DNA of 33,226 nt from Candidatus Gallibacteroides avistercoris (lineage in GTDB: Bacteria; Bacteroidota; Bacteroidia; Bacteroidales; CHK158-818). The stretch lies in contig DVNA01000004.1 in NCBI GenBank assembly GCA_018714665.1, positions 1 to 33,226 on the forward strand, given 5' to 3'. The first letter of the stretch is position 1; every line of letters begins with the position of its first letter. This document shows positions 1,678 to 28,257 of this stretch, piece by piece. The notes under the pieces were generated by a model that was not told the DNA's origin, did not search any database, and saw nothing but the letters and a program-made list of their open reading frames with translations. Position numbers and translations under genes: made by a program.

Positions 1678-1685
1678 TATATTTG
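1678..1685 (+). promoter_or_regulatory. Candidate -7 box (TATATTTG) for metG
   Basis: Exact TAnnTTTG match 30 nt upstream of the metG ATG at 1715. Confidence 0.4.
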
Positions 1686-1714: not shown

Positions 1715-3754
1715 ATGGAAAAGAAATTTAAACGCACATTGGTAACTACCGCGCTTCCGTATGCAAACGGGCCGGTACACATCGGACATTTGGCAGGCGT
1801 GTACGTCCCTGCCGACATCTATACCCGCTACCTCCGCCTTAAAGGCGAGGATGTGATCATGATTGGCGGATCGGACGAACATGGCGTACCCATCACCCTC
1901 AAAGCCAAAGCCGAAGGCGTTTCTCCGCAGGATGTGGTAGATCGTTATCACAACATCATAAAAAAATCGTTTGAAGATTTCGGAATATCGTTCGACATAT
2001 ATTCCCGTACAAGTTCGGCGATACATCACCAGACAGCCTCCGACTTCTTCCGTACCCTCTACGACAAAGGCGTCTTTATTGAAAAGACGAGCGAACAGTA
2101 TTATGACCAGGAGGCGCACCAGTTTCTGGCAGACCGTTATATCACCGGTACCTGTCCCCATTGCAAGAATGAGCACGCTTACGGCGACCAGTGCGAAGCC
2201 TGCGGTACCTCGCTCAACGCCACCGACCTGATCAACCCCCGGTCGGCCATCAGCGGAAGTACCCCCGTCATGCGCGAAACCAAGCACTGGTATCTGCCGC
2301 TCGACAAATACGAGGACTTTCTCCGCCAGTGGATACTCGAAGGACACAAGGAGTGGAAGCCCAATGTATATGGACAGTGCAAATCGTGGTTGGATATGGG
2401 GTTGCAGCCCCGTGCCGTCAGCCGCGATTTGGATTGGGGCGTACCCGTACCCGTAGAGGGAGCCGAAGGAAAGGTACTGTACGTATGGTTCGACGCCCCC
2501 ATCGGTTACATCTCCAACACCAAGGAGCTGCTTCCCGATACGTGGGAAAAGTACTGGAAAGATGAGGAGACCAAAATGGTCCATTTCATCGGGAAAGACA
2601 ACATCGTATTCCACTGCATCGTCTTCCCCACGATGTTGAAGGCCGAAGGCAGTTACATCCTTCCCGAAAATGTTCCGGCCAACGAATTCCTCAATTTGGA
2701 GGGCGATAAAATATCTACCTCGCGCAACTGGGCCGTCTGGCTGCACGAGTACCTGGAAGAGTTTCCCGGCAAACAGGATGTCTTGCGCTATGTCTTGACA
2801 GCCAATGCCCCCGAGACAAAAGACAACGACTTTACCTGGAAAGATTTTCAGGCACGTAACAACAACGAGCTGGTAGCCATCCTGGGCAACTTCGTCAACC
2901 GGGCCATGGTACTGACCCATAAATATTTTGCAGGCAAGGTGCCGGTTTGCGGGGCGATGACCGAATACGATACCCAGACCCTCGAAGATTTCAAAAACAT
3001 AAAAAAAGAGCTGGAATCGTTCATCGAGACCTACCGTTTTCGCGATGCCCTGAAAGAGGCGATGAACCTGGCCCGTATCGGCAACAAATACCTGGCCGAT
3101 ACCGAACCGTGGAAATTGGCCAAAACCGATATGAACCGTGTCGGCACCATCCTGAACCTGTCGTTGCAGATAGCTGCCAACCTGGCCATCGCCTTTGAGC
3201 CGTTCCTTCCCTTCTCTGCGAGCAAACTGCGCAAGATGCTCTCCATGCCGCAATGCGACTGGAACCGTCTGGGCGACACCGACATCCTGCCCGAAGGGCT
3301 TCAACTGGGACAGGCGGAACTGCTGTTTGAAAAGATAGAAGATGCCGTGGTAGAGGCCCAGATACAGAAGCTGCTCGATACCAAAAAGGCCAACGAACTG
3401 AAAAACTATACCCCCCAGCCGGCCAAGGCGAACATCTCGTTTGAAGATTTTACCCGCATGGATATTCGTGTCGGCCGGGTATTGGAGGCAGAACGGGTAC
3501 CGAAAACCACCAAACTGATGAAATTGAAGATCGATACGGGCATAGACCGTCGCACCGTCGTATCGGGCATTGCCGAACATTTTACCCCCGAGGAGGTAGT
3601 CGGTCGGCAGGTATCCATTTTGGTGAACCTCGAACCCCGTAAGATCAAGGGAATCGAATCGCAGGGCATGATTCTGATGGCTGAAAATGCCGACGGCAAG
3701 TTGGTTTTCGTACAACCCTCGGCCGAGGTGAAGAACGGCTCCCAAGTTCGGTAA
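1715..3754 (+). CDS. metG: Methionine--tRNA ligase
   Basis: The ORF in the track starts at 1622, but the conserved N-terminus [26 protein letters not shown] begins at the ATG at 1715 (679 aa). HIGH motif (HIGH), KMSKS-type motif (KISTS), zinc knuckle [18 protein letters not shown], and a C-terminal tRNA-binding domain ([23 protein letters not shown]). Confidence 0.95.
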
Positions 3755-3784
3755 TCTTCCTTTTTCATCGAGAAAAGTTGTGCC

Positions 3785-5236
3785 ATGTCCGGAGAGAGTC
3801 CCCTGAAAGTCAAAACCCAGCACGCGTTGTTGTGGAATGCGTTGGACAAGGTGGTCTTGCAACTTGTCTCGCTGGCGATTAACCTGATTCTGGCCCGGGA
3901 ACTGCTGGACGATACCGACTATGGCCTTTGGGGGATGTTGGCCATTTTTGTGGCCATTGCCAACGCCATGACCGATTGCGGCCTTTCGTCGGCGTTGATA
4001 CGGAAATCCGTCATTTCAGAAAAAGATTACAATACGGCGTTCTATTTCAACCTTGCCTCGTCGTTGCTCCTGTACGGGATACTCTATGCTGCCGCCCCGG
4101 CCATCGCCCGTTTTTACGATGAACCGGTGCTGGTACCGTTGTCGCGGGTACTGTTTCTGGTCCCGATTCTCAATGCCGTAGGGTTGGTACAATCGACGCA
4201 ACTGGCCAAGCAGATACGGTTCAGCCGGCTGACGTTGGTCAATATGGGCAGTCTGCTCTTTTCCGGCGTAGCCGCCATTGCCACGGCCCTGTACGGGTAT
4301 GGCGTCTGGGCGCTCATCATCCAGCAGGTGGTGTTGGCCGGGTCCAAGAGCTTGTTGCTGTGGATGCTGAACCGGTGGCGTCCCAAGTGGCAGTTCAGCA
4401 CGGAATCGTTTAAGGAGATGTTCTTTTTCGGGACCAACCTGACCCTCTCCGGCATCTTGAATGTCGTTTTCCTGAACATATACTCCTCGTTTCTGGGGAA
4501 GTTGTACAAAGAGGATGTCGGTTTCTATGCACAGGCAGTCCGTTGGAGCGACATGGCGGTTTTCTCCCTGGCCGGGACCATCCAGACGGCCACCTATCCC
4601 GTGTTCAGCGCCGTCCAGACCGACACGCAACGGCTTCTTCGCGCCTATCGCAAGACGATGCGTTTTACGGCATTCGTATCCCTGCCGGCCCTGTTGGGGC
4701 TGGTTTTGGTCAGTCGGCCGCTGTTGCTTTGTCTGCTGACCGACAAGTGGGCCGCCTCCATCCCCTATATGCAACTGCTCTGTTTGGCCGGTATCTTTAC
4801 TGTCTTTACGCAGGTGAACCACAATTTCTTGAAGATTGCCGGGAACTCGCGGATGCTGCTGTTGCTCGAAATAGGCAAGATGGCGTTGGTCGGCATCGTG
4901 TTCCTGCTTACCTGGCACCTCTCGCCCGTGGCCATTGTGGCCGGACAGGTACTGGTACGGGTAGTGGTCTATTTCTCGAATGCCTATTTCATCGGCAGGG
5001 TAGTGGGGTATGGCTGGTGGATGCAGTGCAGGGATATCTTCCCGTACGCCGCAATCAGCGGGGCCATGGTAGTGGTGGGGTATGTAGCGGGGCTTCCCGT
5101 TCAGAACATATACGGACAACTGTTCCTGCAAATAGCCATCTGTGCGCTCTTCTACCTGGGCGTCAACAAATGGTTGCATTCCAAGATATTGAGTGAAGTT
5201 TTACAGATATTAAAAAAAGAGAAGAGAGAGATATGA
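3785..5236 (+). CDS. wzx: Wzx-type oligosaccharide flippase (MOP superfamily polysaccharide biosynthesis protein)
   Basis: 483 aa and highly hydrophobic multi-pass. N-terminus (ALLWNALDKVVLQLVSLAINLILARELLDDTDYGLWGMLAIF) is typical of the Wzx/RfbX family. Its stop overlaps the next ATG (ATGA at 5233-5236). Confidence 0.8.
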   Translation: MSGESPLKVKTQHALLWNALDKVVLQLVSLAINLILARELLDDTDYGLWGMLAIFVAIANAMTDCGLSSALIRKSVISEKDYNTAFYFNLASSLLLYGILYAAAPAIARFYDEPVLVPLSRVLFLVPILNAVGLVQSTQLAKQIRFSRLTLVNMGSLLFSGVAAIATALYGYGVWALIIQQVVLAGSKSLLLWMLNRWRPKWQFSTESFKEMFFFGTNLTLSGILNVVFLNIYSSFLGKLYKEDVGFYAQAVRWSDMAVFSLAGTIQTATYPVFSAVQTDTQRLLRAYRKTMRFTAFVSLPALLGLVLVSRPLLLCLLTDKWAASIPYMQLLCLAGIFTVFTQVNHNFLKIAGNSRMLLLLEIGKMALVGIVFLLTWHLSPVAIVAGQVLVRVVVYFSNAYFIGRVVGYGWWMQCRDIFPYAAISGAMVVVGYVAGLPVQNIYGQLFLQIAICALFYLGVNKWLHSKILSEVLQILKKEKREI

Positions 5237-6213
5237 AGACGACAGACAATCCTACCGTAAGCGTATTGATGATATGCTACAATCAACAGGAGTATGTGGG
5301 TCAGGCGATCCGGAGCGTCATGCGGCAGAAGACGACCTTCCCCGTCGAGTTGATTATCCACGACGATTGCAGTACTGATGGTACGGGAGAGGTCTGTATG
5401 CAGTATGCCCGCCGCTATCCAGAGTCGATCCGTTATGTGCGGAACGAAAAAAATGTGGGGTTGGAGGAGAATTTCATCCGTGCCTACCACTTGGCGCGGG
5501 GAAAATACATTGCCATTTGCGAGGGCGATGACTATTGGTTGGGACGGAAAAAGTTGCAGCGGCAGGTCCGTGTGATGGAGGCCCATCCCGAGTATGCCAT
5601 CTGTTTCCATCGGACGCTGAACTACTATATGCACGACGGCAGCAAGAGCCTTACCGCCCGTGAACGGCCCGCTGTTACCACCTTGTACGATTTGGCCCGG
5701 AAGAATTATATCTCGAATGTCTCGTGCCTCTACCGCAAGCAGCCGTTCGAGTTGCCCGCATGGATGTCGCAGGTACGCACCTACGACTATGCCATGCACC
5801 TGCTCAACGCCTGTTACGGCAAAATCGTCTTCCTTCCGCAGGTGATGGCCGTTTACCGGATACACGGTCGCAGCGTATGGAGCGAGTCGGGTGCCGAGAA
5901 GCGTTATCAGATTGCCATGAAGGTGCGTGAATGCGTCATGCTGCATCTGGCCGATACACATCCCGAGGTAGCCGCCATCTTGCGCGAGAAGTACCTGGAT
6001 AATGCCCAAGCGTTGTTGCGTTATTACCGGGCACAGGAAAACCGCGACGGGTTCGACTCGGTTCTGCGTGAGGTACAGCACTACTTTCCCGGTTTTACGG
6101 CGGGCGATGTAGGCGACGCCCTCCCTTCGGGAGGCTCCCCCTTCCGGGCGTTTTTATCTTCGGCCCGGCGTCAGCTTTCAAAATGGTTGCCGCTTCCCGG
6201 CAGGCGGATATAG
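5233..6213 (+). CDS. Glycosyltransferase family 2
   Basis: 326 aa. GT-A N-terminus VSVLMICYNQQEYVGQAIRSVMRQ...LIIHDDCSTDGT and an ICEGDDYW motif. Translationally coupled to wzx. Confidence 0.85.
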   Translation: MKTTDNPTVSVLMICYNQQEYVGQAIRSVMRQKTTFPVELIIHDDCSTDGTGEVCMQYARRYPESIRYVRNEKNVGLEENFIRAYHLARGKYIAICEGDDYWLGRKKLQRQVRVMEAHPEYAICFHRTLNYYMHDGSKSLTARERPAVTTLYDLARKNYISNVSCLYRKQPFELPAWMSQVRTYDYAMHLLNACYGKIVFLPQVMAVYRIHGRSVWSESGAEKRYQIAMKVRECVMLHLADTHPEVAAILREKYLDNAQALLRYYRAQENRDGFDSVLREVQHYFPGFTAGDVGDALPSGGSPFRAFLSSARRQLSKWLPLPGRRI

Positions 6214-6217
6214 GCGA

Positions 6218-6721
6218 TCAAAGGCTTTCGTAACGCTTCATGATGTCGTCGAAGAGCCTTTCCCGTTTCAGAATCCATTCGATAAATTCCCGGAAAGCAC
6301 CGTTCCCTCCACAGCGTGAGGTAACTACCTGTACCCGATCCTTGACGTAATCGACGGCATTTGCCGGCGATGCGCTCAGCCCTGCGTGCAGCAACAGCGG
6401 CAGGTCGTTGATATCATCCCCCATAAAGGCCACCTCTTGCAGCGTGATGCCCATTTGCTGGCATAGCTCACGGGCCAGCGAGAGCTTGTCTTTTACCCCC
6501 AGGAAGATGTGTTCGATGTGAAGTTTCTCGCCTCTTTTCCGGACAATCTCGGTATTCTCTCCCGTCATAATGGCTACCGGAATACCCAGGTCGCGGCAGA
6601 AAATCACGCCCCAGCCGTCGGCTACGTGGAAGCGTTTCATTACATCGCCCTCGCGGGTATAGTACATTCCCCCGTCGGTCCATACACCGTCTATGTCGGT
6701 AATTATCAGTTTCGGTAACAT
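6218..6721 (-). CDS. HAD-superfamily KdsC-type phosphatase (KDO-8-P / KDN-9-P / Neu5Ac-9-P phosphatase family)
   Basis: Trimmed to the ATG at 6721 (167 aa). The longer ORF in the track overlaps the upstream gene. Motif I is DIDGVWTDG and motif IV is MGDDINDLP. Size matches the capless C0 KdsC subfamily. Confidence 0.8.
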   Translation of the reverse strand: MLPKLIITDIDGVWTDGGMYYTREGDVMKRFHVADGWGVIFCRDLGIPVAIMTGENTEIVRKRGEKLHIEHIFLGVKDKLSLARELCQQMGITLQEVAFMGDDINDLPLLLHAGLSASPANAVDYVKDRVQVVTSRCGGNGAFREFIEWILKRERLFDDIMKRYESL

Positions 6722-6723
6722 GG

Positions 6724-7413
6724 TTATAGCAATTTTTCTTTTAGGATAAATTCGGCAAATGCCCAATCCAGCGGCGAGTCCAGGTCGAGCGAGTGGAGCT
6801 CGTCCATCTCCCACTTGCGGATACGTTCGAACCGCGCGAGCGGTTTCTCCCGCAACGTTTGCGGACGTATCACGTAAACCGCCCCGTTGTATTCCCACAC
6901 CGGAGGGGCTTCCTGTCGGCGGGTGTAGCATCCTTTCCCTTTCGAGATGCGCAGAAAACCCGCTTCGTCCGTCTCGAACAGGTTATAGTAGGGGTTGGCC
7001 GAGGCCTGTTTGACCGACACCACCATATCGGTATCGTCGTCGTACAACGCTGTGGCGCCGGCTACATCTTCTACCCGCCGGAAAGGCGAGGTAGGTTGCA
7101 ACAAGATGACGGCATCGAACTGACGTCCGGCCTGTTGGTAGTGGTCTAAGGCGTGCAGGATTACCTCCCGGCTGCCCGAGGTGTCGGACGAGAGGGCCTC
7201 CGGACGGACAAACGGTACCCGCAATCCATATCCTTCGGCAATCCGGATAATCTCTTCGTCATCGGTCGATACGCAGATGTTTTCCGCATCGGTCAGTTGC
7301 AGAGCCATTTCGATGGAGTAACCTATCAGCGGGATACCTGCCAGCGGTTTCCGGTTTTTATGGGGAATCCCCTTGCTCCCTTTGCGGGCGGGAATCAGGT
7401 AGAGTCCGTTCAT
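6724..7413 (-). CDS. CMP-nonulosonic acid synthetase (acylneuraminate cytidylyltransferase family; LegF/NeuA-like)
   Basis: Trimmed to the ATG at 7413 (229 aa). N-terminal signature LIPARKGSKGIPHKNRK; also ILLQPTSPFR. The 391-aa ORF in the track is an out-of-frame overlap with the upstream gene. Confidence 0.85.
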   Translation of the reverse strand: MNGLYLIPARKGSKGIPHKNRKPLAGIPLIGYSIEMALQLTDAENICVSTDDEEIIRIAEGYGLRVPFVRPEALSSDTSGSREVILHALDHYQQAGRQFDAVILLQPTSPFRRVEDVAGATALYDDDTDMVVSVKQASANPYYNLFETDEAGFLRISKGKGCYTRRQEAPPVWEYNGAVYVIRPQTLREKPLARFERIRKWEMDELHSLDLDSPLDWAFAEFILKEKLL

Positions 7414-7418
7414 GGGTA

Positions 7419-8465
7419 TCAATAGTTTATGTGTTTGGCCAATTCTTGTACTTTTTTGTAGTCGTCCGGTTTGCCGATGTCTATCCAGTATCCGATGATC
7501 GGGTATTTGATTACCCGTTTGTTGCGGCAAATCAGTTCCGTAATCAGGTCGGTAGCCTGGAATTTCTCCCCTTGGGGGATGAGCGAAAGCCATTCCCGTT
7601 TTATCAGGTATATGCCGGCATTGGCATAGTAGGTGTAGTTGGGTTTCTCTTCCAGACCGGTGATGCAGTTGCCCTCGGTTTCGACGATGGCGTAGGGGAC
7701 ATTGACACTGTACGGGACGGTGGCAATGGCCATATCGGCTTTCGAAGCGATGAACTCGGCATAAAACGCTTCGTAATCGATGTTGGTAAAGAGGTCGGAG
7801 TTCATAATCAGGACGGTGTCGTGGTTGAATTCCGGGATGAGCCCTACCGCCCCGATGGTTCCCAGAAATGCCGGTTCGGTAATGCAGGTTATCTGGCAAT
7901 CGGCCGATAGTGCCGACTCCTCGAAATGACGGACAATCTGCTCGCCCAAATAGTTGACCGTAACGTAAAAGCGTTCCACGCCGTAATCTTTCAGCCGGGC
8001 GATGTTGTGGTCGATGATGGCCCGTCCTCCCACGTTCAGCAGCGGCTTGGGGGTGGTATCGGTCAAGGGCCGCAGCCGTTCTCCCCGTCCGCCCGCCATG
8101 ATGACGGCATCTATGGGCAGGAGCGATTTTTGTTTGCTGAAATCATATACCTTTTCAATCGTTCCGTCTGCCCGCAGGAAGGGAACCAGCGATAACCGTA
8201 TCTGTTTGTACTGGCGGATTCTTTCCACCGAGAGGTTGGACTCCGACAGGGCGTGGAAGCGGGTGTGCATGATCGTATTGACGGGGTCGTCTAACGTACT
8301 GCCGGAGAGCAATCCCCGCCGTATGTCGCCGTCTGTCAGGGTTCCCACCAGTACCTCCCGTTCGTCTGTTACCAAAAGCGTCAGGATGGTCCCGCTTATT
8401 TTCTGCATGGCATCGCGGATGGTGGCCGAATGGGGGATCAGGTAAGAAGAGTATTCGAGCGTCAT
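7419..8465 (-). CDS. CBS-domain-pair nucleotidyltransferase (PtmE-like sugar-1-phosphate nucleotidylyltransferase)
   Basis: 348 aa. N-terminal CBS pair (LLVTDEREVLVGTLTDGDIRRGLL) fused to an NTP-transferase domain with AVIMAGGRGERLRPLTDTTPKPLL. Its ATG overlaps the neuC stop (ATGA). Confidence 0.75.
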   Translation of the reverse strand: MTLEYSSYLIPHSATIRDAMQKISGTILTLLVTDEREVLVGTLTDGDIRRGLLSGSTLDDPVNTIMHTRFHALSESNLSVERIRQYKQIRLSLVPFLRADGTIEKVYDFSKQKSLLPIDAVIMAGGRGERLRPLTDTTPKPLLNVGGRAIIDHNIARLKDYGVERFYVTVNYLGEQIVRHFEESALSADCQITCITEPAFLGTIGAVGLIPEFNHDTVLIMNSDLFTNIDYEAFYAEFIASKADMAIATVPYSVNVPYAIVETEGNCITGLEEKPNYTYYANAGIYLIKREWLSLIPQGEKFQATDLITELICRNKRVIKYPIIGYWIDIGKPDDYKKVQELAKHINY

Positions 8466-9628
8466 AGTTGTTTCAGGTCGTAAAAAGATTTGGGTATTAG
8501 GCGACGGAAATCGTCCTGTTGTTTCAGTATCTCCACAATTCTCCGGGCCGTGTCGGGTTGTTCGTACGGATTGGTCGTCGAGGCGGCTGTTTGCGCCATT
8601 TTATCGGAAAAGGCCGTTCTAATGGCCGCTTCAATAGCTTTTTCCGAGCACTCACAATCGATAACCGACGAGGCTTTTAACCGACCCTTCTGCCGGTTCC
8701 CGATATTGACGGTAGGGATGCCGAACGAGGGGACCTCCAATACTCCGCTCGACGAGTTTCCGACCACGGCCGACACGTATTGCAGGCAGGAGAGGTAACG
8801 CAGGTGTCCCAACGAAGGGTAGGCCGCACACCGTTGGGGATGTGCGGAGACATATTCCGTTATCAGCGAGATAATCTCCCGCCCCTGTGTGTCGGAGTTG
8901 GGATGCGTGAAGAGTATCTTGGTTTGGGGAAAGGCATCGAGCGCCCGTAACAGCTCTTTCAGCTGTTCGGTGGCCGGGTGCGATTCGAGTGTTTCGGGAT
9001 GGAATGTAACGAGCAGGGTCGGGCAATCCAACGAAAAGGCGAGGGCGTTTTCCAGCTCCTCTTTTCCCAACAGGGGCAGGTGGCGGATGTTGTCCACCCC
9101 CAGGGCTCCGACGTTGAATACGGTCGAGGGGTTTTCGCCCAGCTGGATGATTCGGTTCCGATAGACCTCGGTCGAGGGGAAGTGCAGGTGGCTCATCTTG
9201 GTGATGGAGTGGCGTATGGCGTCGTCGAAGGCGCCCTCGGTAACATCCCCTCCGGAGATGTGTGCCACCGGTATTTTGTAGAGCAGTGCGGCCGAGGCGG
9301 CAGCCAGCATTTCATAACGGTCGCCTAAGAGTACGATCAAATCGGGTTGCAGCGATTCGTAGGCATCGGCCAGCCCGATCATGCCCAATCCCGTTGATTT
9401 GGCCGTGCCGTTGGCCGTGTCGGAGGATAGCAGCATCTCTACCTTCCGGTCTATCGTAAATCCGTCGGCCTCGATCTCCCGGTAGGTCAAGCCGAACTCC
9501 GGGGAGAGGTGCGTGTTGGTAGCGATGATTTGCAGTTGCCACGACGTTTCCGCATCGATGAGGTGCATCAATCGGCTCATTAATCCATATTCGGCACGGC
9601 TGCCGGTTACCACGCAAATCTTTTTCAT
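8462..9628 (-). CDS. neuC: UDP/GDP-N-acetylhexosamine 2-epimerase, hydrolysing (NeuC/LegG family)
   Basis: 388 aa. Segments: VVTGSRAEYGL, LGDRYE, HISGGDVTEGAFDD, TFHPET, GNSSSG. Confidence 0.88.
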   Translation of the reverse strand: MKKICVVTGSRAEYGLMSRLMHLIDAETSWQLQIIATNTHLSPEFGLTYREIEADGFTIDRKVEMLLSSDTANGTAKSTGLGMIGLADAYESLQPDLIVLLGDRYEMLAAASAALLYKIPVAHISGGDVTEGAFDDAIRHSITKMSHLHFPSTEVYRNRIIQLGENPSTVFNVGALGVDNIRHLPLLGKEELENALAFSLDCPTLLVTFHPETLESHPATEQLKELLRALDAFPQTKILFTHPNSDTQGREIISLITEYVSAHPQRCAAYPSLGHLRYLSCLQYVSAVVGNSSSGVLEVPSFGIPTVNIGNRQKGRLKASSVIDCECSEKAIEAAIRTAFSDKMAQTAASTTNPYEQPDTARRIVEILKQQDDFRRLIPKSFYDLKQL

Positions 9629-10632
9629 AGGGTAATCAGTTCGTCGGGTTTATAGTCTCTGTTTGCCGGAGTTCCGATGATTTCGTTCCATTTCATCGGA
9701 GAAATACCGATTCCCGGCCGTTTGGTCGTCAGGTTGTTTTCGGTGAACAGTTCTCCTTGACGGATCTCGGTGGCCGCCACAATGCTTTTGCGGGCTACGG
9801 CCCGGTTCTCCGCTTCTCCGGCGAGGGGTTGCTTGGTCTCTCCCTCTAAGGCTTTTTCTACGGCCCGGATAGAGGCTACCAGCTGTTTCAGCTCTTCGGG
9901 TTCGATGGAGGCTTTGTGGTCCGGCCCCGCCATCTGGCGGTCGAGGGTGAAATGTTTTTCAATCACGCAAGCTCCCAACGCCGCGGCGGCCACGGCAATG
10001 GCCGTTCCCTCGGTGTGGTCCGAATAGCCTGTTTTGACCCCGAATATCTCTCCTAACCGCCGCATCGCATGCAGGTGGACATCCTCGTACGGGGCGGGGT
10101 ATTCGGTGGTACAGTGCAGCAGGGTGATTTTCTCTTTGGTCAGTCCGTTGGCTGTCAATACCGACAGGGCCTCTCCAATCTCTTCGAGCGACGACATGCC
10201 GGTAGAGAGGATAATCGGTTTCCCGCTCCGGGCAATCTGAACCAGGTAGGGGTAGTTGGTAATTTCGCCGGAGGGGATTTTCCAGGTGTCGATGTCGAGC
10301 CGCAACAGCAGGTCGATGCTCTCCTGGTCGAACGGCGATGAGAGAAAACCGATTCCCCGGCTGGCGCAATAGTCGGCCAGCAGGTAGAAGTCCGTCTCCG
10401 ACAGGGCGAGCCGTCGCAACATATCCAGTTGGTTTTCGTCGGTCGTCTCCGGTTGGTTCTGGCGTTGGTATGCTGCCTGGGGGGCAGCTGCCGAAGCCAG
10501 TTTTTCGGGGACGAAGGTTTGGAATTTCACATAATCGGCCTTTGCCTCAGCCGCGGCATCTATCAGCCGTCGGGCTATGGCGATGTCGCCGTTGTGGTTT
10601 ACCCCGATCTCTGCAATAACGATGGTCTTCAT
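9625..10632 (-). CDS. neuB: Nonulosonic acid synthase (N-acetylneuraminate / N,N'-diacetyllegionaminate synthase; NeuB/LegI)
   Basis: 335 aa. Segments: IAEIGVNHNGD, YVKFQTF, HCTTEYPAP, GYSDHT, and a C-terminal SAF domain. Confidence 0.9.
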   Translation of the reverse strand: MKTIVIAEIGVNHNGDIAIARRLIDAAAEAKADYVKFQTFVPEKLASAAAPQAAYQRQNQPETTDENQLDMLRRLALSETDFYLLADYCASRGIGFLSSPFDQESIDLLLRLDIDTWKIPSGEITNYPYLVQIARSGKPIILSTGMSSLEEIGEALSVLTANGLTKEKITLLHCTTEYPAPYEDVHLHAMRRLGEIFGVKTGYSDHTEGTAIAVAAAALGACVIEKHFTLDRQMAGPDHKASIEPEELKQLVASIRAVEKALEGETKQPLAGEAENRAVARKSIVAATEIRQGELFTENNLTTKRPGIGISPMKWNEIIGTPANRDYKPDELITL

Positions 10633-11267
10633 AGCGATTGTGTCCGATGGGCCGGTTGCCCGATGTAGGTTCCCGGTGTGATGATGTCGCGGCTTACCAA
10701 ACTTCCTGCGCCTAAAATAACCCGTTGTGTGACGGATATGCTGTGGAAAACGGTACAGTTACTCCCGATAAAGCACTCTTTGCCTATCTCTACCTCTCCG
10801 TTGAGGATGGCTCCGGTAGAGAGGTGCGTGTGCGAATGGACGATGGTGTCGTGTTCGACGATGGCCCCGGTGTTGATAATGCAGTTTTCGCCTATTTTAG
10901 CCCCGGCATTGACTACGGCCCGGTTCAGGATGATGGTACCCTCCCCGATTTGGGCGTGCCGCGAAACGACGGCGTAGGGAGAGATGAGGGTGGCGAATTG
11001 GCCTCCCATGATTTTTATCTGGTCGAATATGGCAACGCGCCGGGCGGCCGACTTGATCTGTCCCAACGTAATCAGAAATTCGTGGTCGGTCTCTACCCAT
11101 TGGGCAAACTCGTCGTCCGTCCCCACGATGGGGTAACCTAAAACCGTTTCTCCTACCCGTTCGGGTACGTCCAGAATTCCTTCTATCATTACGTTGTCCA
11201 TGAGTTCAATCGCGTTGATGCACGATTTACAGTGGCCTCCGCCTCCAATTAAGATTAGTTTTTTCAT
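10629..11267 (-). CDS. Left-handed beta-helix sugar N-acetyltransferase (NeuD/PglD family; LegH-like)
   Basis: 212 aa. N-terminal Rossmann-like LILIGGGGHCKSCINAIE followed by hexapeptide repeats (IGEGTIILNRAVVNAGAKIGENCIINTGAIVEHD). Confidence 0.8.
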   Translation of the reverse strand: MKKLILIGGGGHCKSCINAIELMDNVMIEGILDVPERVGETVLGYPIVGTDDEFAQWVETDHEFLITLGQIKSAARRVAIFDQIKIMGGQFATLISPYAVVSRHAQIGEGTIILNRAVVNAGAKIGENCIINTGAIVEHDTIVHSHTHLSTGAILNGEVEIGKECFIGSNCTVFHSISVTQRVILGAGSLVSRDIITPGTYIGQPAHRTQSL

Positions 11268-12406
11268 AATACCACGCTGCTTGGAATGTTAATAATTCGC
11301 TCTTCTAACCAGTGAGCGTTTGTCAAGTGGTCGTGTTGGCACTGTTCGAACATGGGCAACTGGGTCATCAGTCGCCATGCCGGACGGGTCATGACGCCGT
11401 TATCATTGCTGTATGCCAGAAATTCATCTCGCGATTCCTTGTCGGGCATAATCAGTGTATTCAACCAATAGTTCGATTGACACCCCTCCGGTTCGGTAAA
11501 AAACGAAACCGGCAACGCCTCGAAAAATGCGTTGTAGCGGTGGGCAATCTCTCGTTTCTTTTCGATGAAAAGGGGCAGATTCTCCATTTGTGCACACCCT
11601 AAGGCAGCGTTGATGTTGGGCATCCGGTAGTTGTATCCTATCGCATCGTGTACAAATTCCCACCGGTGGGGCAGTTTGGCCTGGGTAGTCAGGTGTTTGG
11701 CCCGGGCTCCTAAGTCGGCATCTTGAAAAAGCAACATCCCGCCTCCTCCCGTGGTGACGGTTTTGTTTCCGTTAAAACTTAAAACGCCGATTTTACCGAA
11801 CGTTCCGGTATGTTTCCCCTTGTAGAAGCTACCCAAACTTTCGGCGGCATCTTCCACCACGGCGATGTGGTACCGGTTGCAAACCTCCAACAATTCGTCC
11901 AGGTGTACCGGGTGCCCGAATGTGTGCATCGGTACGCAGGCTGCAATCCGGTTTCCGGTTGTCCGGTTGTAACAACCATCGCCCCGCATCTGGGCATTCT
12001 CTTTCAACCATTGCTCCACGGCGGCGGGGGATAGCCCCAACGTGTCGCGGTCCACATCCAGAAATACCGGACGGGCGCCGATGTAGCTGATGGCATTTGC
12101 CGTAGCGATGAAAGTGAGGGGTTGGGTAATCACTTCGTCGTATTGCTTTACGCCGGCCAACAGCAGGGCCATGTGCAGGGCGTTGGTGCCGTTTACGCAG
12201 ACAACGGCCCGGGCCGCTCCGGTATAGTCGGCCACCATCTCTTCGAAACGATCTACAAATTTCCCTACGCTCGATACGAACGTAGAGTCGATACACGCTT
12301 CCAGATAACGCTTTTCGTTCCCTGCAAAACAGGGTGCGTGCAGCGGAATTGTTCCCTCCGTCCCCGCATAGAGCGTTTTTATGAATGATACGATCTGGTT
12401 ATACAT
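11264..12406 (-). CDS. legC: DegT/DnrJ/EryC1-family PLP aminotransferase (LegC-like)
   Basis: 380 aa. Segments: CVNGTNALHMAL, and a PLP-lysine region SFNGNKTVTTGGGG typical of the LegC subgroup. Confidence 0.8.
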   Translation of the reverse strand: MYNQIVSFIKTLYAGTEGTIPLHAPCFAGNEKRYLEACIDSTFVSSVGKFVDRFEEMVADYTGAARAVVCVNGTNALHMALLLAGVKQYDEVITQPLTFIATANAISYIGARPVFLDVDRDTLGLSPAAVEQWLKENAQMRGDGCYNRTTGNRIAACVPMHTFGHPVHLDELLEVCNRYHIAVVEDAAESLGSFYKGKHTGTFGKIGVLSFNGNKTVTTGGGGMLLFQDADLGARAKHLTTQAKLPHRWEFVHDAIGYNYRMPNINAALGCAQMENLPLFIEKKREIAHRYNAFFEALPVSFFTEPEGCQSNYWLNTLIMPDKESRDEFLAYSNDNGVMTRPAWRLMTQLPMFEQCQHDHLTNAHWLEERIINIPSSVVL

Positions 12407-13379
12407 TGTATATCTGCCATTTGTAGTTCTTTAAATGTTCGGGTTGGGTAAACCATTGTACGGTTTTCGACAACCCCTCTTCTATGGTATGTCGGGGGGT
12501 GAAACCGGTCAATTTGTGTAGCAGCGAGTTGTCTCCCCACAACCGGAAAACTTCCGATTTCACCGGACGAATCCTGACCTTATCTTCGATAAAGCGTACC
12601 TCCTCTTTTCCCATGATCCGGGCAATCAGCGAGAGAGTGTCGCGCATCGATATTTCGTAGTTGGAGGCGATGTTCACCTCCTGTCCGATGGCTTCGGGGC
12701 ATTGTGCCAGGGCGATAAAACCGGCGCAGGTATCCTCCACGTAGTTGAAATCGCGGGTGGGCGAGAGCGATCCCAGTTTAATCTCTTCGGCACCGTTGGC
12801 GATTTGCGTGATGATGGTGGGGATGATGGCTCTGGCCGATTGACGGGGTCCGTATGTGTTGAACGGACGGGCAATGATTACCGGCAAGTCAAAAGCGCTG
12901 TAAAAACTCTTTGCCAGGGCGTCTGCTCCGATTTTGGAGGCGGAGTAGGGCGATTGCGGCTGTTTGGGATGGTTTTCGTCGATGGGCACGTAACGGGCTG
13001 TCCCATATACCTCGGAGGTGGAGGTTACCACCACCCGTTCCACCTTTTCTTCCCATGCGGCCTGGCAGATGTTGAGCGTACCCTTTACGTTGGTATCTAT
13101 GTAGCTGTCGGGGGCGATGTACGAGTAGGGTATGGCGATCAGTGCGGCCAGGTGGAATACCGTGTCGATGCCCTGCATGATATGCCGGCAGAGATGGGGG
13201 TCGCGTACATCGCCCGCTACCACCTCCAAAGCAGGGTGTTCCAATCCTTCGAGCCAACCCCGGTATCCGAACGAGTTGTAGTAGGACAGGGCCCGTACCC
13301 GGTATCCTTGTGCTAAAAGCATTTCGGTCAAATGCGAACCGATAAAGCCGTCTGCTCCTGTAACCAATATATGCTGCAT
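12399..13379 (-). CDS. legB: NAD-dependent sugar-nucleotide 4,6-dehydratase (SDR; LegB-like)
   Basis: ATG at 13379 (MQHILVTGADGFIGSHL). The track start at 13385 is a TTG. Catalytic YxxxK is in SPYSASKIGAD. 326 aa. Confidence 0.8.
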   Translation of the reverse strand: MQHILVTGADGFIGSHLTEMLLAQGYRVRALSYYNSFGYRGWLEGLEHPALEVVAGDVRDPHLCRHIMQGIDTVFHLAALIAIPYSYIAPDSYIDTNVKGTLNICQAAWEEKVERVVVTSTSEVYGTARYVPIDENHPKQPQSPYSASKIGADALAKSFYSAFDLPVIIARPFNTYGPRQSARAIIPTIITQIANGAEEIKLGSLSPTRDFNYVEDTCAGFIALAQCPEAIGQEVNIASNYEISMRDTLSLIARIMGKEEVRFIEDKVRIRPVKSEVFRLWGDNSLLHKLTGFTPRHTIEEGLSKTVQWFTQPEHLKNYKWQIYNV

Positions 13380-13389
13380 AGGCAATCTG

Positions 13390-14259
13390 TTAAAGTTCTG
13401 GTTCTATTTTTATACGCTCAAACGCATCGATGTACGAGTTGGGCGTGATGTTGAAAATCTCTTTGTGCAGATAGCGTGCATACGCTTTTATCTGGAAATA
13501 GCCTTTGAACACGACGTACATGTGGTAAAGTATTTCGTAAAGTTTCGACGACTGGTCGTTGTGGTCGCGTGCCTTTACCTGTACGGCCTGTTGGGTATAG
13601 AAGTGTTTGGCGCCGTAATATACGGTGTTGTCGTCGTCCACCATCACCTCCGATAGCCAGGAGTGTTCGGCCCCGGCCAGGTAGAGTCGCTCGAAGGGCA
13701 TCCGCAGCCCCAACATGATGGCCGGAATCAGGACATTGTGCGGACGGGGCATCCCCCAGCCTTTTTTGTAAAGGGGATAGGTTATGCATTTGAATCCCTC
13801 TACCGGAGTGGTATTGTAGAAATGCAGAAAGATGTTCGGGTTCTTCGCCACCAGCTCCTGCCAGGTTTTGTGCGAACGGGACCGGACGGGCATGAACAGG
13901 TGCATCGGCCAGGTTACCGTTTGCGAGATAGTCCCGAAGAGCCGTTCGGTCGATTCGGGTTGAAGCCAGAAATAGGGGTCGGCCACCACGTACAGTTCCG
14001 GTTTTACGACGGTAAATTGTTTGGAACAGGCCGAGAAGTTTACCATCAGGCAACATTTGTCCTGCCAAAAGGAGGGCGATTTCTCAATGAGTCCGTTCAA
14101 CGAGGGGCCGTTGCCCATCACCACCAACTCTTTGGGATGGGTAACAGACAGGGGTACGTCCGTATGGAATTTTGTAAAAAGGAGAATTTTTACAAAACTG
14201 AGAGCCGTTTGTACGCAATCGGCGGTAAAATATTGCATCTTGTCTAAAAACGGAGTCAT
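13390..14259 (-). CDS. Hypothetical protein; candidate CstII/GT42-like (or DUF115/Maf-like) nonulosonic-acid transferase
   Basis: 289 aa and first gene of the operon. It has a VVMGNGPSL motif, a CLMVNF segment, LIPAIMLGLRMPFERLYLAGAEHSW, and a C-terminal NITPNSYIDAFERI. From memory, these occur in the same order and spacing as motifs in Campylobacter CstII (291 aa). Confidence 0.5.
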   Translation of the reverse strand: MTPFLDKMQYFTADCVQTALSFVKILLFTKFHTDVPLSVTHPKELVVMGNGPSLNGLIEKSPSFWQDKCCLMVNFSACSKQFTVVKPELYVVADPYFWLQPESTERLFGTISQTVTWPMHLFMPVRSRSHKTWQELVAKNPNIFLHFYNTTPVEGFKCITYPLYKKGWGMPRPHNVLIPAIMLGLRMPFERLYLAGAEHSWLSEVMVDDDNTVYYGAKHFYTQQAVQVKARDHNDQSSKLYEILYHMYVVFKGYFQIKAYARYLHKEIFNITPNSYIDAFERIKIEPEL

Positions 14260-14279
14260 AGTTTACGGCCTATTTTTTA

Positions 14280-14287
14280 CAAATGTA
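14280..14287 (-). promoter_or_regulatory. Candidate -7 box (TACATTTG on the minus strand) for the nine-gene NulO operon
   Basis: caaatgta on the + strand equals TAnnTTTG on the - strand, about 20 nt upstream of the ATG at 14259, within the 107-bp divergent intergenic region. Confidence 0.4.
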
Positions 14288-14317
14288 CATAAACTTTTCG
14301 TGAAACGAAAAAAATAT

Positions 14318-14325
14318 TATCTTTG
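14318..14325 (+). promoter_or_regulatory. Candidate -7 box (TATCTTTG) for the GT4-GT2 pair
   Basis: Exact TAnnTTTG match 42 nt upstream of the ATG at 14367. Confidence 0.4.
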
Positions 14326-14366
14326 TCTAAGGCAGACCGCTTGCCGTTTGAGTGATATATGGAGAG

Positions 14367-15644
14367 ATGAAAGTACTATTTGTCAATACATACGAGTCTC
14401 GTGGAGGGGCCGCTATTGCTTGCCGGAGGCTTGCCCGGGCAGTGTCGAGAGCCGGCGTCGATGTCCGTCTGTTGGTACGCGAACCTTTTTCCGGCGTAGA
14501 TCAGAGAATATCTTCCGTCTCCTCTTCGCGGATGGCCCGGATGTTGAATTTTTTCCGGTTTGCCTGGGAGCGGTTTACCATTTTTCTGTACAACCGGTTT
14601 TCGCGCCGCAATCTTTTTGCAGTCTCTATTGCCAACACGGGGGAGGATATCTCCCGGCGCAAGGAGGTACAGGAGGCCGATGTGATTCACCTGCATTGGG
14701 TAAACCAGGGTTTTTTATCGATCAAGGATATTCAGCGGCTGACGGAGCTGGGGAAGCCTGTTGTCTGGACGATGCACGATATGTGGCCGTTTACCGGCAT
14801 TTGCCATTATGCCTGGCAGTGCCGCCGTTTTGAAGAGCGGTGCGGCTGTTGCCCTTTCCTCGTCTCTCCCGGTGAAAACGATTTGTCGGCCCAGGTATTG
14901 GAACGGAAACAGAAATGGAAATTCTCCGATATCTCTTTCGTCGCTTGCAGCCGGTGGCTGTGCGACAATGCCCGAAAGGCTTCCCTCTTGCAAAACAGCG
15001 ACGTCTCGAATATCCCCAATCCCATCGATACCAACTTCTGGAAACCCCAGAACAAGCAGGAGGTACGCAAGATGTTCCGTTTCCCCGAAAAGCGGAAATT
15101 GCTGTTGTTTGTCGCCGACAACGTCTCCGATACGCGCAAAGGCATTGCCTACCTGTATGAGGCGCTGAAAATATTAGAGTTGAAAAAGGCCGATTTAATC
15201 GAAAAAATGTCGTTGGTCATATTGGGTAAGAGAAGTCGCGACGTATCGTTGCAGTCGCCCTTTCATACCATACCGATGGGTTATCTCTCCGATGCCAAAC
15301 AGATTTGCCGGTTGTACTCGGCCGTCGATCTGTTTGTAACGCCGTCGCTCGAAGACAACCTGCCCAATACCGTTATGGAGGCCATGGCCTGCGGCTGTCC
15401 GGTAGTAGGATTCCGTATCGGGGGAATCCCCGAAATGATAGACCACCTTCAAAACGGATACGTGGCCGAGAGCCGCTCTTCTGCTGACCTGGCCAAAGGG
15501 ATAGAAGAGATATTGTTTTCAGAGAACTATTTTTATTATAGCACCCAGGCCCGTTTAAAGGTACAACAGTCCTATGCTGAGCCCTATATTGCCCGGCAAT
15601 ATATGGATTTGTATCAGATATTATTGGATAAAAAATATGAATAA
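14367..15644 (+). CDS. Glycosyltransferase family 4 (GT-B, group 1)
   Basis: ATG at 14367 (MKVLFVNTYESRGGAA). The track start at 14352 is a GTG. C-terminal GT1 signature: VTPSLEDNLPNTVMEAMACGCPVVGFRIGGIPEMI. 425 aa. Confidence 0.85.
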   Translation: MKVLFVNTYESRGGAAIACRRLARAVSRAGVDVRLLVREPFSGVDQRISSVSSSRMARMLNFFRFAWERFTIFLYNRFSRRNLFAVSIANTGEDISRRKEVQEADVIHLHWVNQGFLSIKDIQRLTELGKPVVWTMHDMWPFTGICHYAWQCRRFEERCGCCPFLVSPGENDLSAQVLERKQKWKFSDISFVACSRWLCDNARKASLLQNSDVSNIPNPIDTNFWKPQNKQEVRKMFRFPEKRKLLLFVADNVSDTRKGIAYLYEALKILELKKADLIEKMSLVILGKRSRDVSLQSPFHTIPMGYLSDAKQICRLYSAVDLFVTPSLEDNLPNTVMEAMACGCPVVGFRIGGIPEMIDHLQNGYVAESRSSADLAKGIEEILFSENYFYYSTQARLKVQQSYAEPYIARQYMDLYQILLDKKYE

Positions 15645-16392
15645 ACCGCTCTTCTCCGTTATTACCGTTACATACAATGCCGAGCAGGTTGTGTTGCCGA
15701 CGTTGAAAAGCCTCTCGTCGCAAACCTGTACCGATTATGAGCACCTGGTAATCGACGGGGCTTCTACCGACCGTACCCTTGCCGTAGTAAAGGAGTTCGA
15801 CTCTTCCCGGTTGCGCATTATTTGCGAACCGGACAAGGGGTTGTACGATGCCATGAACAAGGGGATGGCCGCCGCTTGCGGGCAGTATCTCCTCTTTTTG
15901 AATGCCGGCGACTCCTTTTTCGACCCGCAGACGTTGCAGTCGCTCAAACAGCAGATAGAGGAGGCTTCGTCGCCGGATATCATCTATGGCGAGACCGCCT
16001 TGTGCGACGATGCCGGGAATCTGGTCGGGATGCGCCGGTTGAAAGCACCCGAGAAACTGACGTGGAAAAGTTTCCGGAACGGGATGTTGGTTTGTCATCA
16101 GGCCTTTATTGCCAAACGGGAGATAGCCCCTCCCTATGATTTGACTTACCGTTTCTCTGCCGATTTCGATTGGTGTATCCGTTGCATGAAACAGGCCCAG
16201 ACCATTCATAACAGCCACCGGGTACTCATCCGTTACCTTTCCGAAGGGTTGACTACCCGCAACCACAAGGCCTCGCTGAAAGAGCGTTACCGGATTATGT
16301 GCCGTTATTACGGTCGTATCCCCGTATCGTTGCTGCACCTGTGGTTTGCCGTTCGGTACTATTATGCCAAATGGATTGTAGGTAGGGTATAG
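15637..16392 (+). CDS. Glycosyltransferase family 2
   Basis: ATG at 15637 overlaps the GT4 stop by 8 nt. FSVITVTYNAEQVVLPTLKSLSSQTCTDYEHLVIDGASTDRT and FLNAGD (DxD-like). 251 aa. Confidence 0.85.
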   Translation: MNKPLFSVITVTYNAEQVVLPTLKSLSSQTCTDYEHLVIDGASTDRTLAVVKEFDSSRLRIICEPDKGLYDAMNKGMAAACGQYLLFLNAGDSFFDPQTLQSLKQQIEEASSPDIIYGETALCDDAGNLVGMRRLKAPEKLTWKSFRNGMLVCHQAFIAKREIAPPYDLTYRFSADFDWCIRCMKQAQTIHNSHRVLIRYLSEGLTTRNHKASLKERYRIMCRYYGRIPVSLLHLWFAVRYYYAKWIVGRV

Positions 16393-16411
16393 TATATTAC
16401 CCTTTTCATCG

Positions 16412-16453
16412 AAAAAATACCCCTGAAACTTTATTGTATCAGGGGTATTTTTT
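16412..16453. terminator. Bidirectional hairpin terminator between convergent GT2 and yfhO
   Basis: aaaaaatacccctga / tcaggggtatttttt forms a 15-bp stem (including its A/T-run ends) with a 12-nt loop. A-run and T-run flanks give a U-tail on both strands. Confidence 0.65.
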
Positions 16454-16459
16454 ATCAGG

Positions 16460-18913: not shown

Positions 18914-18931
18914 GTATGTAATGGGTTTGAA

Positions 18932-18955
18932 GCCGGGGAGAAGAGCCTCCCCGGC
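18932..18955 (-). terminator. GC-rich hairpin between ahcY and yfhO (weak terminator, attenuator or RNA stabiliser)
   Basis: Perfect 9-bp stem gccggggag / ctccccggc with a 6-nt loop. Only a short U-tract follows on the minus strand. Confidence 0.3.
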
Positions 18956-18967
18956 GGTATGCAACGG

Positions 18968-20386: not shown

Positions 20387-20408
20387 AGTTCTATTGATAT
20401 TTTGCCTG

Positions 20409-28245: not shown

Positions 28246-28257
28246 AATCAACCGTTG

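Follow-up and report, generated by a model that had tools for sequence, protein, structure and literature searches.

The 33,226-nt stretch of DNA analysed here (hereafter the window) is part of contig DVNA01000004.1 of assembly GCA_018714665.1 and belongs to Candidatus Gallibacteroides avistercoris, an uncultured member of the Bacteroidales (CHK158-818). Between positions 1724 and 16392 it carries what is probably an lfg-type locus, which would encode the species-specific outer part of a general protein O-glycan. Embedded in this locus is an operon for a nonulosonic acid (NulO), the best-supported product of which, judged from its gene families, is a legionaminic acid (Leg)-type sugar. This is a known kind of locus, an lfg frame with an embedded NulO pathway as in Tannerella forsythia UB4 and 92A2, found in a new uncultured lineage. 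What is new is a different candidate transferase family, a retained phosphatase of the 2-keto-3-deoxynononic acid (Kdn) type, a cassette-like slot shared with lfg loci of Bacteroides, and contiguity with the gene of a predicted oligosaccharyltransferase (OTase).

Gene layout and lfg-type frame

In the form in which later papers summarise the original descriptions, which is the definition followed here, lfg loci consist of metG, wzx, variable genes and then two conserved terminal glycosyltransferases (GTs). The last gene encodes a GT2 fucosyltransferase (FucT), BF4306 in Bacteroides fragilis and Tanf_01305/GtfE in T. forsythia, preceded in T. forsythia by GtfL (PMC12871550, PMC8698959, PMC6120980). 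BF4306 and Tanf_01305 have proven action on protein O-glycans and complement each other (PMC8698959), and metG linkage is a published hallmark of such loci (PMC8698959, PMC12871550). Comparison of the terminal GT2 of the window with the protein sequences of BF4306, Tanf_01305 and Phep_4048 (taken from the supplement of PMC8698959) showed 60.7% identity to Tanf_01305 and 57.7% to BF4306, both over approximately 240 of 255 residues, and 43.9% to Phep_4048. It is an orthologue of the first two, being as close to each of them as they are to one another (58%). The match is specific to the terminal GT2, because the other GT2 of the locus (GT2a) shares only 26-30% identity with the fucosyltransferases, and this over the N-terminal third only. 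The features of the locus are listed below, with domain assignments derived from Pfam and NCBIfam scans of all open reading frames (ORFs) of the window of at least 100 aa.

1678..1685, plus strand: Bacteroidetes-type -7 promoter motif (TATATTTG) from a motif scan, ahead of metG and after tRNA-Tyr, tRNA-Gly and a terminator hairpin
1724..3754, plus strand: metG, methionine-tRNA ligase (NF001100, 872 bits); first gene of a predicted metG-wzx-GT2a transcript
3785..5236, plus strand: wzx, MOP-family flippase (PF13440, 266 bits)
5233..6213, plus strand: GT2a, GT2-family glycosyltransferase (PF00535), ATGA-coupled to wzx
6218..6721, minus strand: HAD-IIIA phosphatase, KDN-9-phosphate (KDN-9-P) phosphatase homologue (NF058599, 232 bits); last gene of the sugar operon
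6724..7413, minus strand: legF-like CMP-nonulosonate synthetase (cytidylyltransferase; PF02348, CTP_transf_3; PseF model 136 bits, under its cut-off)
7419..8465, minus strand: ptmE-like CBS-domain sugar-1-phosphate nucleotidyltransferase (PF00483 and CBS)
8462..9628, minus strand: legG, hydrolysing NDP-sugar 2-epimerase of the NeuC family (TIGR03568, 477 bits)
9625..10632, minus strand: legI, nonulosonic acid synthase of the NeuB family (TIGR03569, 480 bits)
10629..11267, minus strand: legH, NeuD/PglD-type N-acetyltransferase (TIGR03570, 197 bits; PglD_N and hexapeptide repeats)
11264..12406, minus strand: legC, aminotransferase (TIGR04181, 562 bits)
12399..13379, minus strand: legB, NAD-dependent 4,6-dehydratase (TIGR04180, 488 bits)
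13390..14259, minus strand: 289-aa DUF115/MptE-like protein with a GNGPSL motif (weak PF01973); first gene of the sugar operon
14260..14366, no strand: divergent promoter region of 107 nt, with one TAnnTTTG per strand (14287 minus, 14318 plus)
14367..15644, plus strand: GT4, GT-B glycosyltransferase of 425 aa (PF00534 and PF13439)
15637..16392, plus strand: terminal GT2, orthologue of BF4306 and Tanf_01305 (GtfE) by sequence identity over nearly its full length
16393..16459, no strand: convergent intergenic region of 67 nt, with a hairpin between an A-run and a T-run read from the sequence
16460..18964, minus strand: YfhO-family GT-C membrane protein of 834 aa (PF09586), adjoining the island and outside it

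The arrangement described in the original prediction was reproduced at the nucleotide level. Exactly 30 nt separate the metG stop at 3754 from the wzx ATG at 3785, with no terminator-like hairpin found in this gap, and GT2a overlaps wzx by an ATGA (5233-5236). Nine minus-strand genes (6218-14259), with inter-gene gaps of -8 to +5 nt, converge on this pair as had been stated, the stop codons of the operon and of GT2a lying 4 nt apart, while GT4 and the terminal GT2 diverge from the promoter region of the operon. Start codons were refined to ATG 6721 for the HAD phosphatase, ATG 7413 for legF and ATG 13379 for legB, and are most likely ATG 14367 for GT4 and ATG 15637 for the terminal GT2. The earlier count of one flippase and four predicted transferases held for the flippase, GT2a, GT4 and the terminal GT2; the fourth transferase is the unannotated 289-aa protein, a candidate for this role only.

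On the relevant strands near the island, the motif TAnnTTTG was found only at 1678 (plus, metG), 14318 (plus, GT4) and 14287 (minus, nine-gene operon), with no further occurrence from the site at 1678 to the 3' end of GT2a. Its total in the window is at chance level and the sites are suggestive by placement only, directly upstream of operon starts; this placement suggests three transcription units. A sigma-70 promoter scan was uninformative, returning 12 sites compared to 12.6 expected. The hairpin at 16393..16459 resembles a bidirectional terminator that would end the locus.

A wzx profile run against one genome per GTDB species yielded 79 loci (loci are denoted below by L numbers). Wherever the contig reaches, metG was identified directly upstream of the wzx genes whose products are 42-48% identical to that of the window (L002-L005, L007-L010), in line with the metG linkage on which the lfg-type reading had been based; the contigs of L006 and L012 are shorter than 4 kb and end approximately 320 and 1,600 bp upstream of wzx. 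The metG product of the window is 77-82% identical to those flanking wzx in other Bacteroidales loci. In a neighbour-joining (NJ) tree of the 79 wzx, the window was found to group with L083, L002-L011 and L025, neighboured by L020, L056, L078, L079 and L067. All members of this clade are linked to metG, FucT or a DUF115-like gene, with the exception of L006, L025 and L067. Capsule-context wzx of Bacteroides and those of Flavobacteriia, Marinilabiliales and the TuaB type of Firmicutes fall outside it, and the clustering with capsule or O-antigen loci that the original prediction had named as evidence to the contrary was not seen.

Homologues of GT4 with 38-50% identity were identified directly before BF4306 orthologues in seven loci (L008-L010, L056, L078, L079 and L087, including that of B. 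clarus), and the sister locus L083 was found to possess the same GT4-FucT pair at 77%. The FucT of L009 is 77% identical to BF4306. FucT is likewise terminal in L020 and L089, where the preceding gene has no match to GT4 of the window. By its position, its homologues and its size (425 aa, compared to 420 aa for GtfL), GT4 would be the conserved penultimate lfg transferase at the BF4305/GtfL position. GT2a has equally placed homologues (40-45% identity) in B. graminisolvens, B. clarus, a Bacteroides sp. metagenome-assembled genome (MAG) and a locus with a Mediterranea massiliensis protein. The first three of these share with the window the entire frame, metG-wzx-GT2a> <HAD...DUF115 GT4-FucT>, with identities of 40-43% for GT2a, 52-66% for HAD, 50-51% for the DUF115-like protein, 45-50% for GT4 and 56-58% for FucT.

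A rival reading is that the neighbourhood of metG is coincidental and that the locus serves a capsule, O-antigen or lipooligosaccharide, with the glycan placed on lipid or polymerised by genes elsewhere. Capsules and O-antigens often contain nonulosonic acids. Wzx of the TuaB/PRK10459 type also serve capsule and teichuronic-acid loci, with those of Planococcus and of non-lfg Bacteroidales reaching the same NCBIfam scores as that of the window. Set against this are the closeness of the terminal GT2 to BF4306 and Tanf_01305, the metG linkage and the grouping of wzx with wzx linked to metG or FucT. Furthermore, as had been noted from the ORFs before, no Wzy, Wzz/Wza/Wzc, initiating phosphoglycosyltransferase (WbaP/WecA- or WcfS/WbaP-type) or UpxY/UpxZ was identified in any ORF of the window with Pfam and NCBIfam; the sole PNPT-family gene is mraY, situated inside the dcw cluster and unrelated to the island. 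With no polymerase, regulator or export gene and with the FucT orthology, the capsule/O-antigen reading was rejected and is considered very improbable.

Further arrangements were observed among lfg-like loci. In L002-L005 (approximately 9560-11450; ruminant or other gut 'Bacteroidaceae' and Barnesiella MAGs), metG is followed by a small ORF of 126-142 aa and a wzx with 46-48% identity, with no GT4/FucT pair within 10 kb, representing a reduced or split lfg arrangement. In L056 (uncultured Barnesiella) and L020 (unclassified Bacteroidales; 3600-16950), the porP-gldKLMN operon for type IX secretion is oriented divergently from wzx, and metG is found downstream of FucT and not upstream of wzx.

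The overall gene order of the window is a TPR protein, ribH, tRNA-Tyr, tRNA-Gly, metG, the island, the YfhO-family gene, sahH (ahcY), serS, yqeY and the dcw cluster from ftsZ to murE. Downstream of the tRNA genes (tRNA-Tyr(GTA), 1367-1450; tRNA-Gly(TCC), 1480-1555) come a terminator, made up of a hairpin and a T-run, and then the metG promoter motif. The dcw cluster (22319-33153, minus strand) is an ordinary one (ftsZ, ftsA, ftsQ, murC, murG, ftsW, murD, mraY, murE). Across metG-wzx, the 3.9-kb contig CASGEW010000117.1, from an uncultured Bacteroidales MAG, is 99% identical to the window. In the sister genome L083, a gene with a CMD/ABM domain is present on the opposite strand in the interval between ribH and metG.

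The nonulosonic-acid operon and its slot

Five products of the sugar operon were found to score above curated cut-offs. LegB (488 bits, cut-off 475, TIGR04180) and LegC (562, cut-off 420, TIGR04181) represent the stereochemistry-defining steps of the Leg pathway, while the models passed by NeuD/LegH (197, cut-off 161), NeuC/LegG (477, cut-off 236) and NeuB/LegI (480, cut-off 400) also cover sialic-acid enzymes. The ptmE-like and legF-like products fit by domain architecture and position and reach no equivalog cut-off (136 bits compared to 205.7 with the PseF model). The genes legB-legC-legH-legI-legG-ptmE-legF follow the order known from T. forsythia FDC 92A2, in which the Leg genes are BFO_1074, 1073, 1067, 1066, 1065, 1064 (ptmE) and 1063, with the same module present in UB4; LegB, LegC and LegG of T. 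forsythia have been shown biochemically to act on GDP-linked substrates (PMC5378307). By analogy, the ptmE-like protein would be a glucosamine-1-phosphate (GlcN-1-P) guanylyltransferase supplying GDP-N-acetylglucosamine (GDP-GlcNAc). Considering the cut-offs passed, the presence of PtmE-type and cytidylyltransferase genes and the gene order of 92A2, a Leg-type sugar is therefore the best-supported product.

The last gene of the operon encodes a HAD phosphatase which passes the KDN-9-P phosphatase equivalog cut-off (NF058599, 232 compared to 180 bits) and has the motif DIDGVWTDG intact. Its best match in the PDB was 3E81/3E8M (E 5.6e-49), which we take to be structures of B. thetaiotaomicron BT1713, the KDN-9-P phosphatase of a Kdn pathway in which BT1714 is the KDN-9-P synthase. 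The partner synthase in the window is a LegI/NeuB above the sialic/legionaminic cut-off, whereas the Kdn-type NeuB of B. graminisolvens is divergent at 232 bits.

An lfg-type locus producing another 5,7-diamino derivative, or a sugar of the Kdn or N-acetylneuraminic acid (Neu5Ac) type made over a phosphorylated route by NeuB and HAD, would account for this phosphatase. It would also be compatible with the breadth of the NeuC, NeuB and NeuD models, with relatives that keep only NeuB, NeuD and HAD, and with the further modification of its NulO by T. forsythia (PMC5420450). Nevertheless, LegB and LegC score above their specific cut-offs, the PtmE-type enzyme is present in the order of T. forsythia 92A2 (PMC5378307), and no extra epimerase, methyltransferase or amidotransferase genes were found in the domain scans, so that such a product appears distinctly unlikely compared to a Leg-type sugar, the exact derivative of which can only be presumed.

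Comparison of the window to the O-glycosylation locus of T. forsythia revealed both likeness and difference. In each, wzx is situated at one end and a GT-B (GtfL in T. forsythia) with the GT2 GtfE at the other, with no polymerase (PMC6120980), and a complete CMP-legionaminic acid module of identical gene order lies inside the locus (PMC5378307). The window island is smaller (approximately 12.6 kb compared to 27 kb), is without methyltransferases, wecB/wecC and asnB, is apparently arranged as three transcription units as opposed to one polycistron, and has a sugar operon ending in a KDN-9-P phosphatase homologue, unlike that of T. forsythia. It is linked to metG, of which PMC6120980 makes no mention for T. 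forsythia. A further difference is that the NulO transferase of T. forsythia is the TagB-like GT-B GtfS of approximately 442-445 aa (TFUB4_00887 / Tanf_01245) (PMC5420450). No TagB-like protein of the GtfS type of approximately 445 aa was identified in the window, where GT4, found together with FucT also in loci without NulO genes, is the sole GT-B. The proposals of the original prediction that the product is a Leg-type sugar and that the transferase set differs from that of T. forsythia are thus both supported, the 289-aa DUF115-like protein standing in place of GtfS; its remark that the combination would be new for this organism holds trivially, the source being an uncultured Bacteroidales MAG.

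The lfg loci of B. fragilis (BF4298-BF4306) and other Bacteroides are like the window in having metG upstream of wzx, variable GTs, two conserved terminal GTs ending in the BF4306 type, and no Wzy or initiating transferase. To our knowledge, that of B. fragilis contains no nonulosonic-acid genes. Where the window has a seven-gene Leg pathway with HAD, the Bacteroides loci identified in the present scan have a Kdn-like module of three genes (cytidylyltransferase, NeuB-like synthase, HAD), and those of B. graminisolvens, B. clarus and the Bacteroides sp. MAG were found to differ in composition from the window only between HAD and DUF115. In L091, the same nine-gene operon as in the window occurs with GT2a-wzx-metG.

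The nearest longer relative, GCA_947627035.1 (L083), shares 90-96% amino-acid identity with the window in the flanking housekeeping genes and only 74-79% in the glycan genes, and faster divergence of the latter is typical of surface-glycan loci. Both L083 and L092 possess a short module, DUF115-NeuD-NeuB-HAD, from which the segments equivalent to 6722-9619 (legF, ptmE, legG) and 11313-13404 (legC, legB) of the window are missing with clean boundaries, and which has no cytidylyltransferase. Between the long and short forms LegH is 89% identical and LegI only 69%. From these sequence comparisons, the sugar slot appears to behave as an exchangeable cassette, one that lfg loci of Bacteroides also possess. 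The Kdn-like modules of the lfg-type loci L008-L010, L087 and L089 and of the wzx locus L011 hint that gut Bacteroidales may often cap the general O-glycan with a Kdn-type sugar; no description of Kdn in Bacteroides O-glycans, including BT1713/BT1714 in an lfg context, was found in the literature searched.

Two further loci are of note regarding this slot. In L091 (109-929), an HTH_17 (excisionase-like) gene together with a small ORF takes the place of GT4-FucT ahead of the DUF115-like gene; insertion of a mobile element or rearrangement at the divergent promoter could account for this. L011, from a Proteiniphilum MAG, is a wzx locus in which metG and FucT were not detected, yet it possesses a Kdn-like module and a DUF115-like gene.

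The 289-aa DUF115/MptE-like protein

No Pfam or NCBIfam match at normal thresholds was obtained for the 289-aa protein encoded by the first gene of the operon, and its 941 database homologues are all annotated as 'hypothetical'. Among aligned members of its family, 27/28 match PF01973 (MptE-like, formerly DUF115/Maf_flag10) at E<=1, the best at E 1.8e-6. PF01973 is the catalytic domain of the Maf flagellin nonulosonic-acid transferases and is structurally related to the GT42 sialyltransferases (bioRxiv 10.1101/2020.06.03.131540). An AlphaFold2 (AF2) model of the protein (pLDDT 87.8) gave as its top PDB match the archaeal MptE 8SD5 (E 1.7e-4), with SteA also returned (TM-score approximately 0.3-0.4). 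Fold matches in BFVD were to viral MptE-like/DUF115 proteins (E 5.5e-7, TM-score 0.53) and, weakly, to viral GT29 sialyltransferases. PDB sequence searches with the protein alone and with the family profile returned nothing meaningful.

The genomic context is stronger evidence for a transferase role than domain or fold. The DUF115-like gene was found to adjoin a NulO module in 12/12 loci examined, with four module types represented (DUF115-like loci: the window, L007-L011, L083, L087-L090, L091, L092). A Leg module accompanies it in the window and L091, a complete pseudaminic acid (Pse) pathway (PseB, PseC, PseF, PseG/H, PseI) in L007, and the short NeuB/NeuD/HAD form in L083 and L092. The Kdn-like trio of cytidylyltransferase, divergent NeuB and HAD is found in L008-L011 and L087-L090, with HAD detected in 8/9 loci; its hosts are B. 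graminisolvens, B. clarus, the Bacteroides sp. MAG, the Proteiniphilum MAG, the contig with the M. massiliensis protein, and Tannerellaceae, Prevotellaceae and Muribaculaceae MAGs. In the four lfg loci without a NulO module (L020, L056, L078, L079), FucT is kept, GT4 is kept in three and the DUF115-like gene is absent. Because in the loci examined it always occurs with NulO modules and is absent from lfg loci without them, the 289-aa protein is likely to be the nonulosonic-acid transferase of the locus, and is put forward as a candidate on this basis.

The resemblance to Maf flagellin transferases comprises the PF01973 domain (27/28, divergent), the GNGPSL motif and the strict link to CMP-nonulosonate genes. 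The family of the window differs in being approximately 285 aa in length without flanking Maf domains, compared to roughly 600 aa or more for Maf, and in its acceptor. That of Maf is Ser/Thr of flagellin, whereas the window comes from non-flagellated Bacteroidales, in which the acceptor is presumed to be a lipid-linked oligosaccharide. In the Prevotellaceae MAG L088 (413-3838), a 1141-aa TMEM260-like GT-C of the protein O-mannosyltransferase family was observed approximately 4 kb from a DUF115-cytidylyltransferase-NeuB-HAD cassette, outside lfg.

A number of observations weigh against the reading presented here. For the 289-aa protein of the window itself, PF01973 was matched at E 0.047 and 13.9 bits, under the cut-off of 34.6. 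Fold and profile searches with the protein or its family did not retrieve Maf (5MU5) or Cst-II, and an hhalign comparison of the family to a Cst-II sequence, no more than a lead, aligned only a 14-residue stretch containing GNGPSL, at a probability of 16%. GT4 was placed at the BF4305/GtfL position from its location, size and homologues, the wzx tree is without support values, and metagenome assemblies are the only source of the organism. The short form in L083 and L092 demonstrates that possession of the Leg module varies within the lineage. HAD has no evident role in a Leg operon, because the Leg route proceeds without a phosphorylated nine-carbon intermediate; the enzyme may be a remnant of an ancestral Kdn-type cassette or may have a second activity. 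The NCBIfam O-glycosylation flippase model NF058658 was dropped as evidence, as it scored 368 bits for the Wzx of the window (cut-off 720) and 311-390 on every TuaB/PRK10459-type Wzx tried, including that of Planococcus. Sub-threshold matches to this model should not be counted as evidence of O-glycosylation, since Wzx of Firmicutes score alike.

The low Pfam score and the failure to retrieve Maf and Cst-II, together with solved-structure neighbours limited to MptE, a pterin diphosphokinase, and SteA, would be expected if a classical GT added the NulO and the DUF115-like protein had a modification, kinase-like or scaffolding role. However, GT2a, GT4 and FucT are kept in lfg loci without a NulO module (L056, L078 and L079; in L020 FucT only, with no GT4 match), the DUF115-like gene is restricted, in the loci examined, to those with such a module, GNGPSL is kept, and both the viral GT29 matches and the catalytic nature of PF01973 in Maf point in the direction of a transferase. 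A non-transferase role is accordingly considered somewhat unlikely.

The YfhO-family neighbour and significance

Directly beyond the terminal FucT, and convergent with it across the 67-nt spacer, lies a YfhO-family gene situated 3 nt downstream of sahH (16460-20440, minus strand), with which it is presumably co-transcribed. YfhO proteins linked to sahH or luxS have been predicted to be the missing O-oligosaccharyltransferase of the Bacteroidota, on the criteria of PF09586 at gathering, many transmembrane helices, a GT-C fold and adjacency to sahH or mtnN-luxS (bioRxiv 10.64898/2026.07.27.740950, July 2026); according to a 2025 review, the OTase and the outer-glycan ligase of the Bacteroidota system were still unknown. 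The YfhO of the window was found to score 29.8 bits with PF09586 (gathering cut-off 28.5) and to be 55-61% identical to YfhO of Barnesiella and Coprobacter. The top PDB matches of its AF2 model are all GT-C (AftD, STT3, PglB, EmbC; E 6e-4 to 5e-2, TM-score approximately 0.3). It thus agrees with the preprint in PF09586, GT-C fold and sahH adjacency, the OTase function itself being a prediction, and it may be considered a candidate O-oligosaccharyltransferase of the same glycosylation system.

The contiguity of lfg and yfhO is kept in the sister MAGs L083, L080, L082 and L092, and is absent from the Coprobacter, Barnesiella and Bacteroides loci examined. Divergent YfhO-family genes (39-43% identity) were identified immediately downstream of GT4-FucT and co-oriented with it in a Tannerellaceae MAG (L089, 440-4809), and diverging from wzx in polymerase-less wzx-GT2-methyltransferase-GT1 clusters of Draconibacterium and Prolixibacteraceae. 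Divergent YfhO-family loci of this kind are L023, L033, L036 and L054 (approximately 5900-11450), L021 and L043. Adjacency in three lineages, convergent in that of the window, co-oriented in Tannerellaceae and divergent in Draconibacterium/Prolixibacteraceae, is suggestive context support; these genes could be orthologues or paralogues, the latter for example an outer-glycan ligase. In Barnesiella propionica (L086, 2176-12451), the porP-gldKLMN operon was observed to diverge from sahH-yfhO.

A mechanism can be proposed from these assignments. metG, wzx and GT2a would be transcribed together from the metG promoter, with the divergent promoter region driving GT4-FucT in one direction and the nine-gene operon in the other. 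The operon would convert GlcN-1-P to GDP-GlcNAc and onward to CMP-legionaminic acid by means of PtmE, LegB, LegC, LegH, LegG, LegI and LegF. At the cytoplasmic face, GT2a, GT4 and the BF4306-type FucT, in an order which can only be presumed, would build a short non-polymerised oligosaccharide on undecaprenyl phosphate, which the 289-aa DUF115/Maf-like protein would cap with the Leg-type sugar from its CMP donor. Wzx would then flip the capped product to the periplasm, where enzymes encoded outside the island would attach it to the conserved core glycan carried by D(S/T)(A/I/L/V/M/T) sequons of proteins, the presumed final acceptors. The adjacent YfhO GT-C is a candidate for one of these enzymes.

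General O-glycosylation in Bacteroidota, whose protein targets number in the hundreds, is important for colonisation of the gut and for oral pathogenesis. The diversity of its outer glycans has been described in only a handful of cultured species, with nonulosonic-acid caps known only in T. forsythia. To this the window adds an lfg frame with an embedded Leg pathway in an uncultured member of the Bacteroidales, alongside Bacteroides with a Kdn-like module in the same slot. Its contiguity with sahH-yfhO adds context evidence to the recent OTase proposal. The unannotated protein family represents a testable enzyme candidate, with homologues in the culturable B. clarus and B. graminisolvens.

It is conceivable, although we would place the chances somewhat below even, that both of the following hold: that the DUF115/MptE-like proteins of approximately 285 aa are an unrecognised family of nonulosonic-acid transferases, and that adjacency to lfg independently supports YfhO as OTase or outer-glycan ligase. 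If so, the family would represent a minimal Maf-like enzyme working on a lipid-linked oligosaccharide and not on flagellin. Its gene would travel with swappable Kdn-, Pse- and Leg-type modules in lfg loci of Bacteroides, Mediterranea, Tannerellaceae and the lineage of the window, and would be found outside lfg loci also, in Prevotellaceae and Muribaculaceae. Sialic-acid-like capping of the general protein O-glycan would then be widespread in gut Bacteroidales and not peculiar to T. forsythia, and mimicry of sialic acid by abundant surface glycoproteins would have consequences for recognition by the immune system (Siglecs) and for interactions with phages and lectins in the gut.

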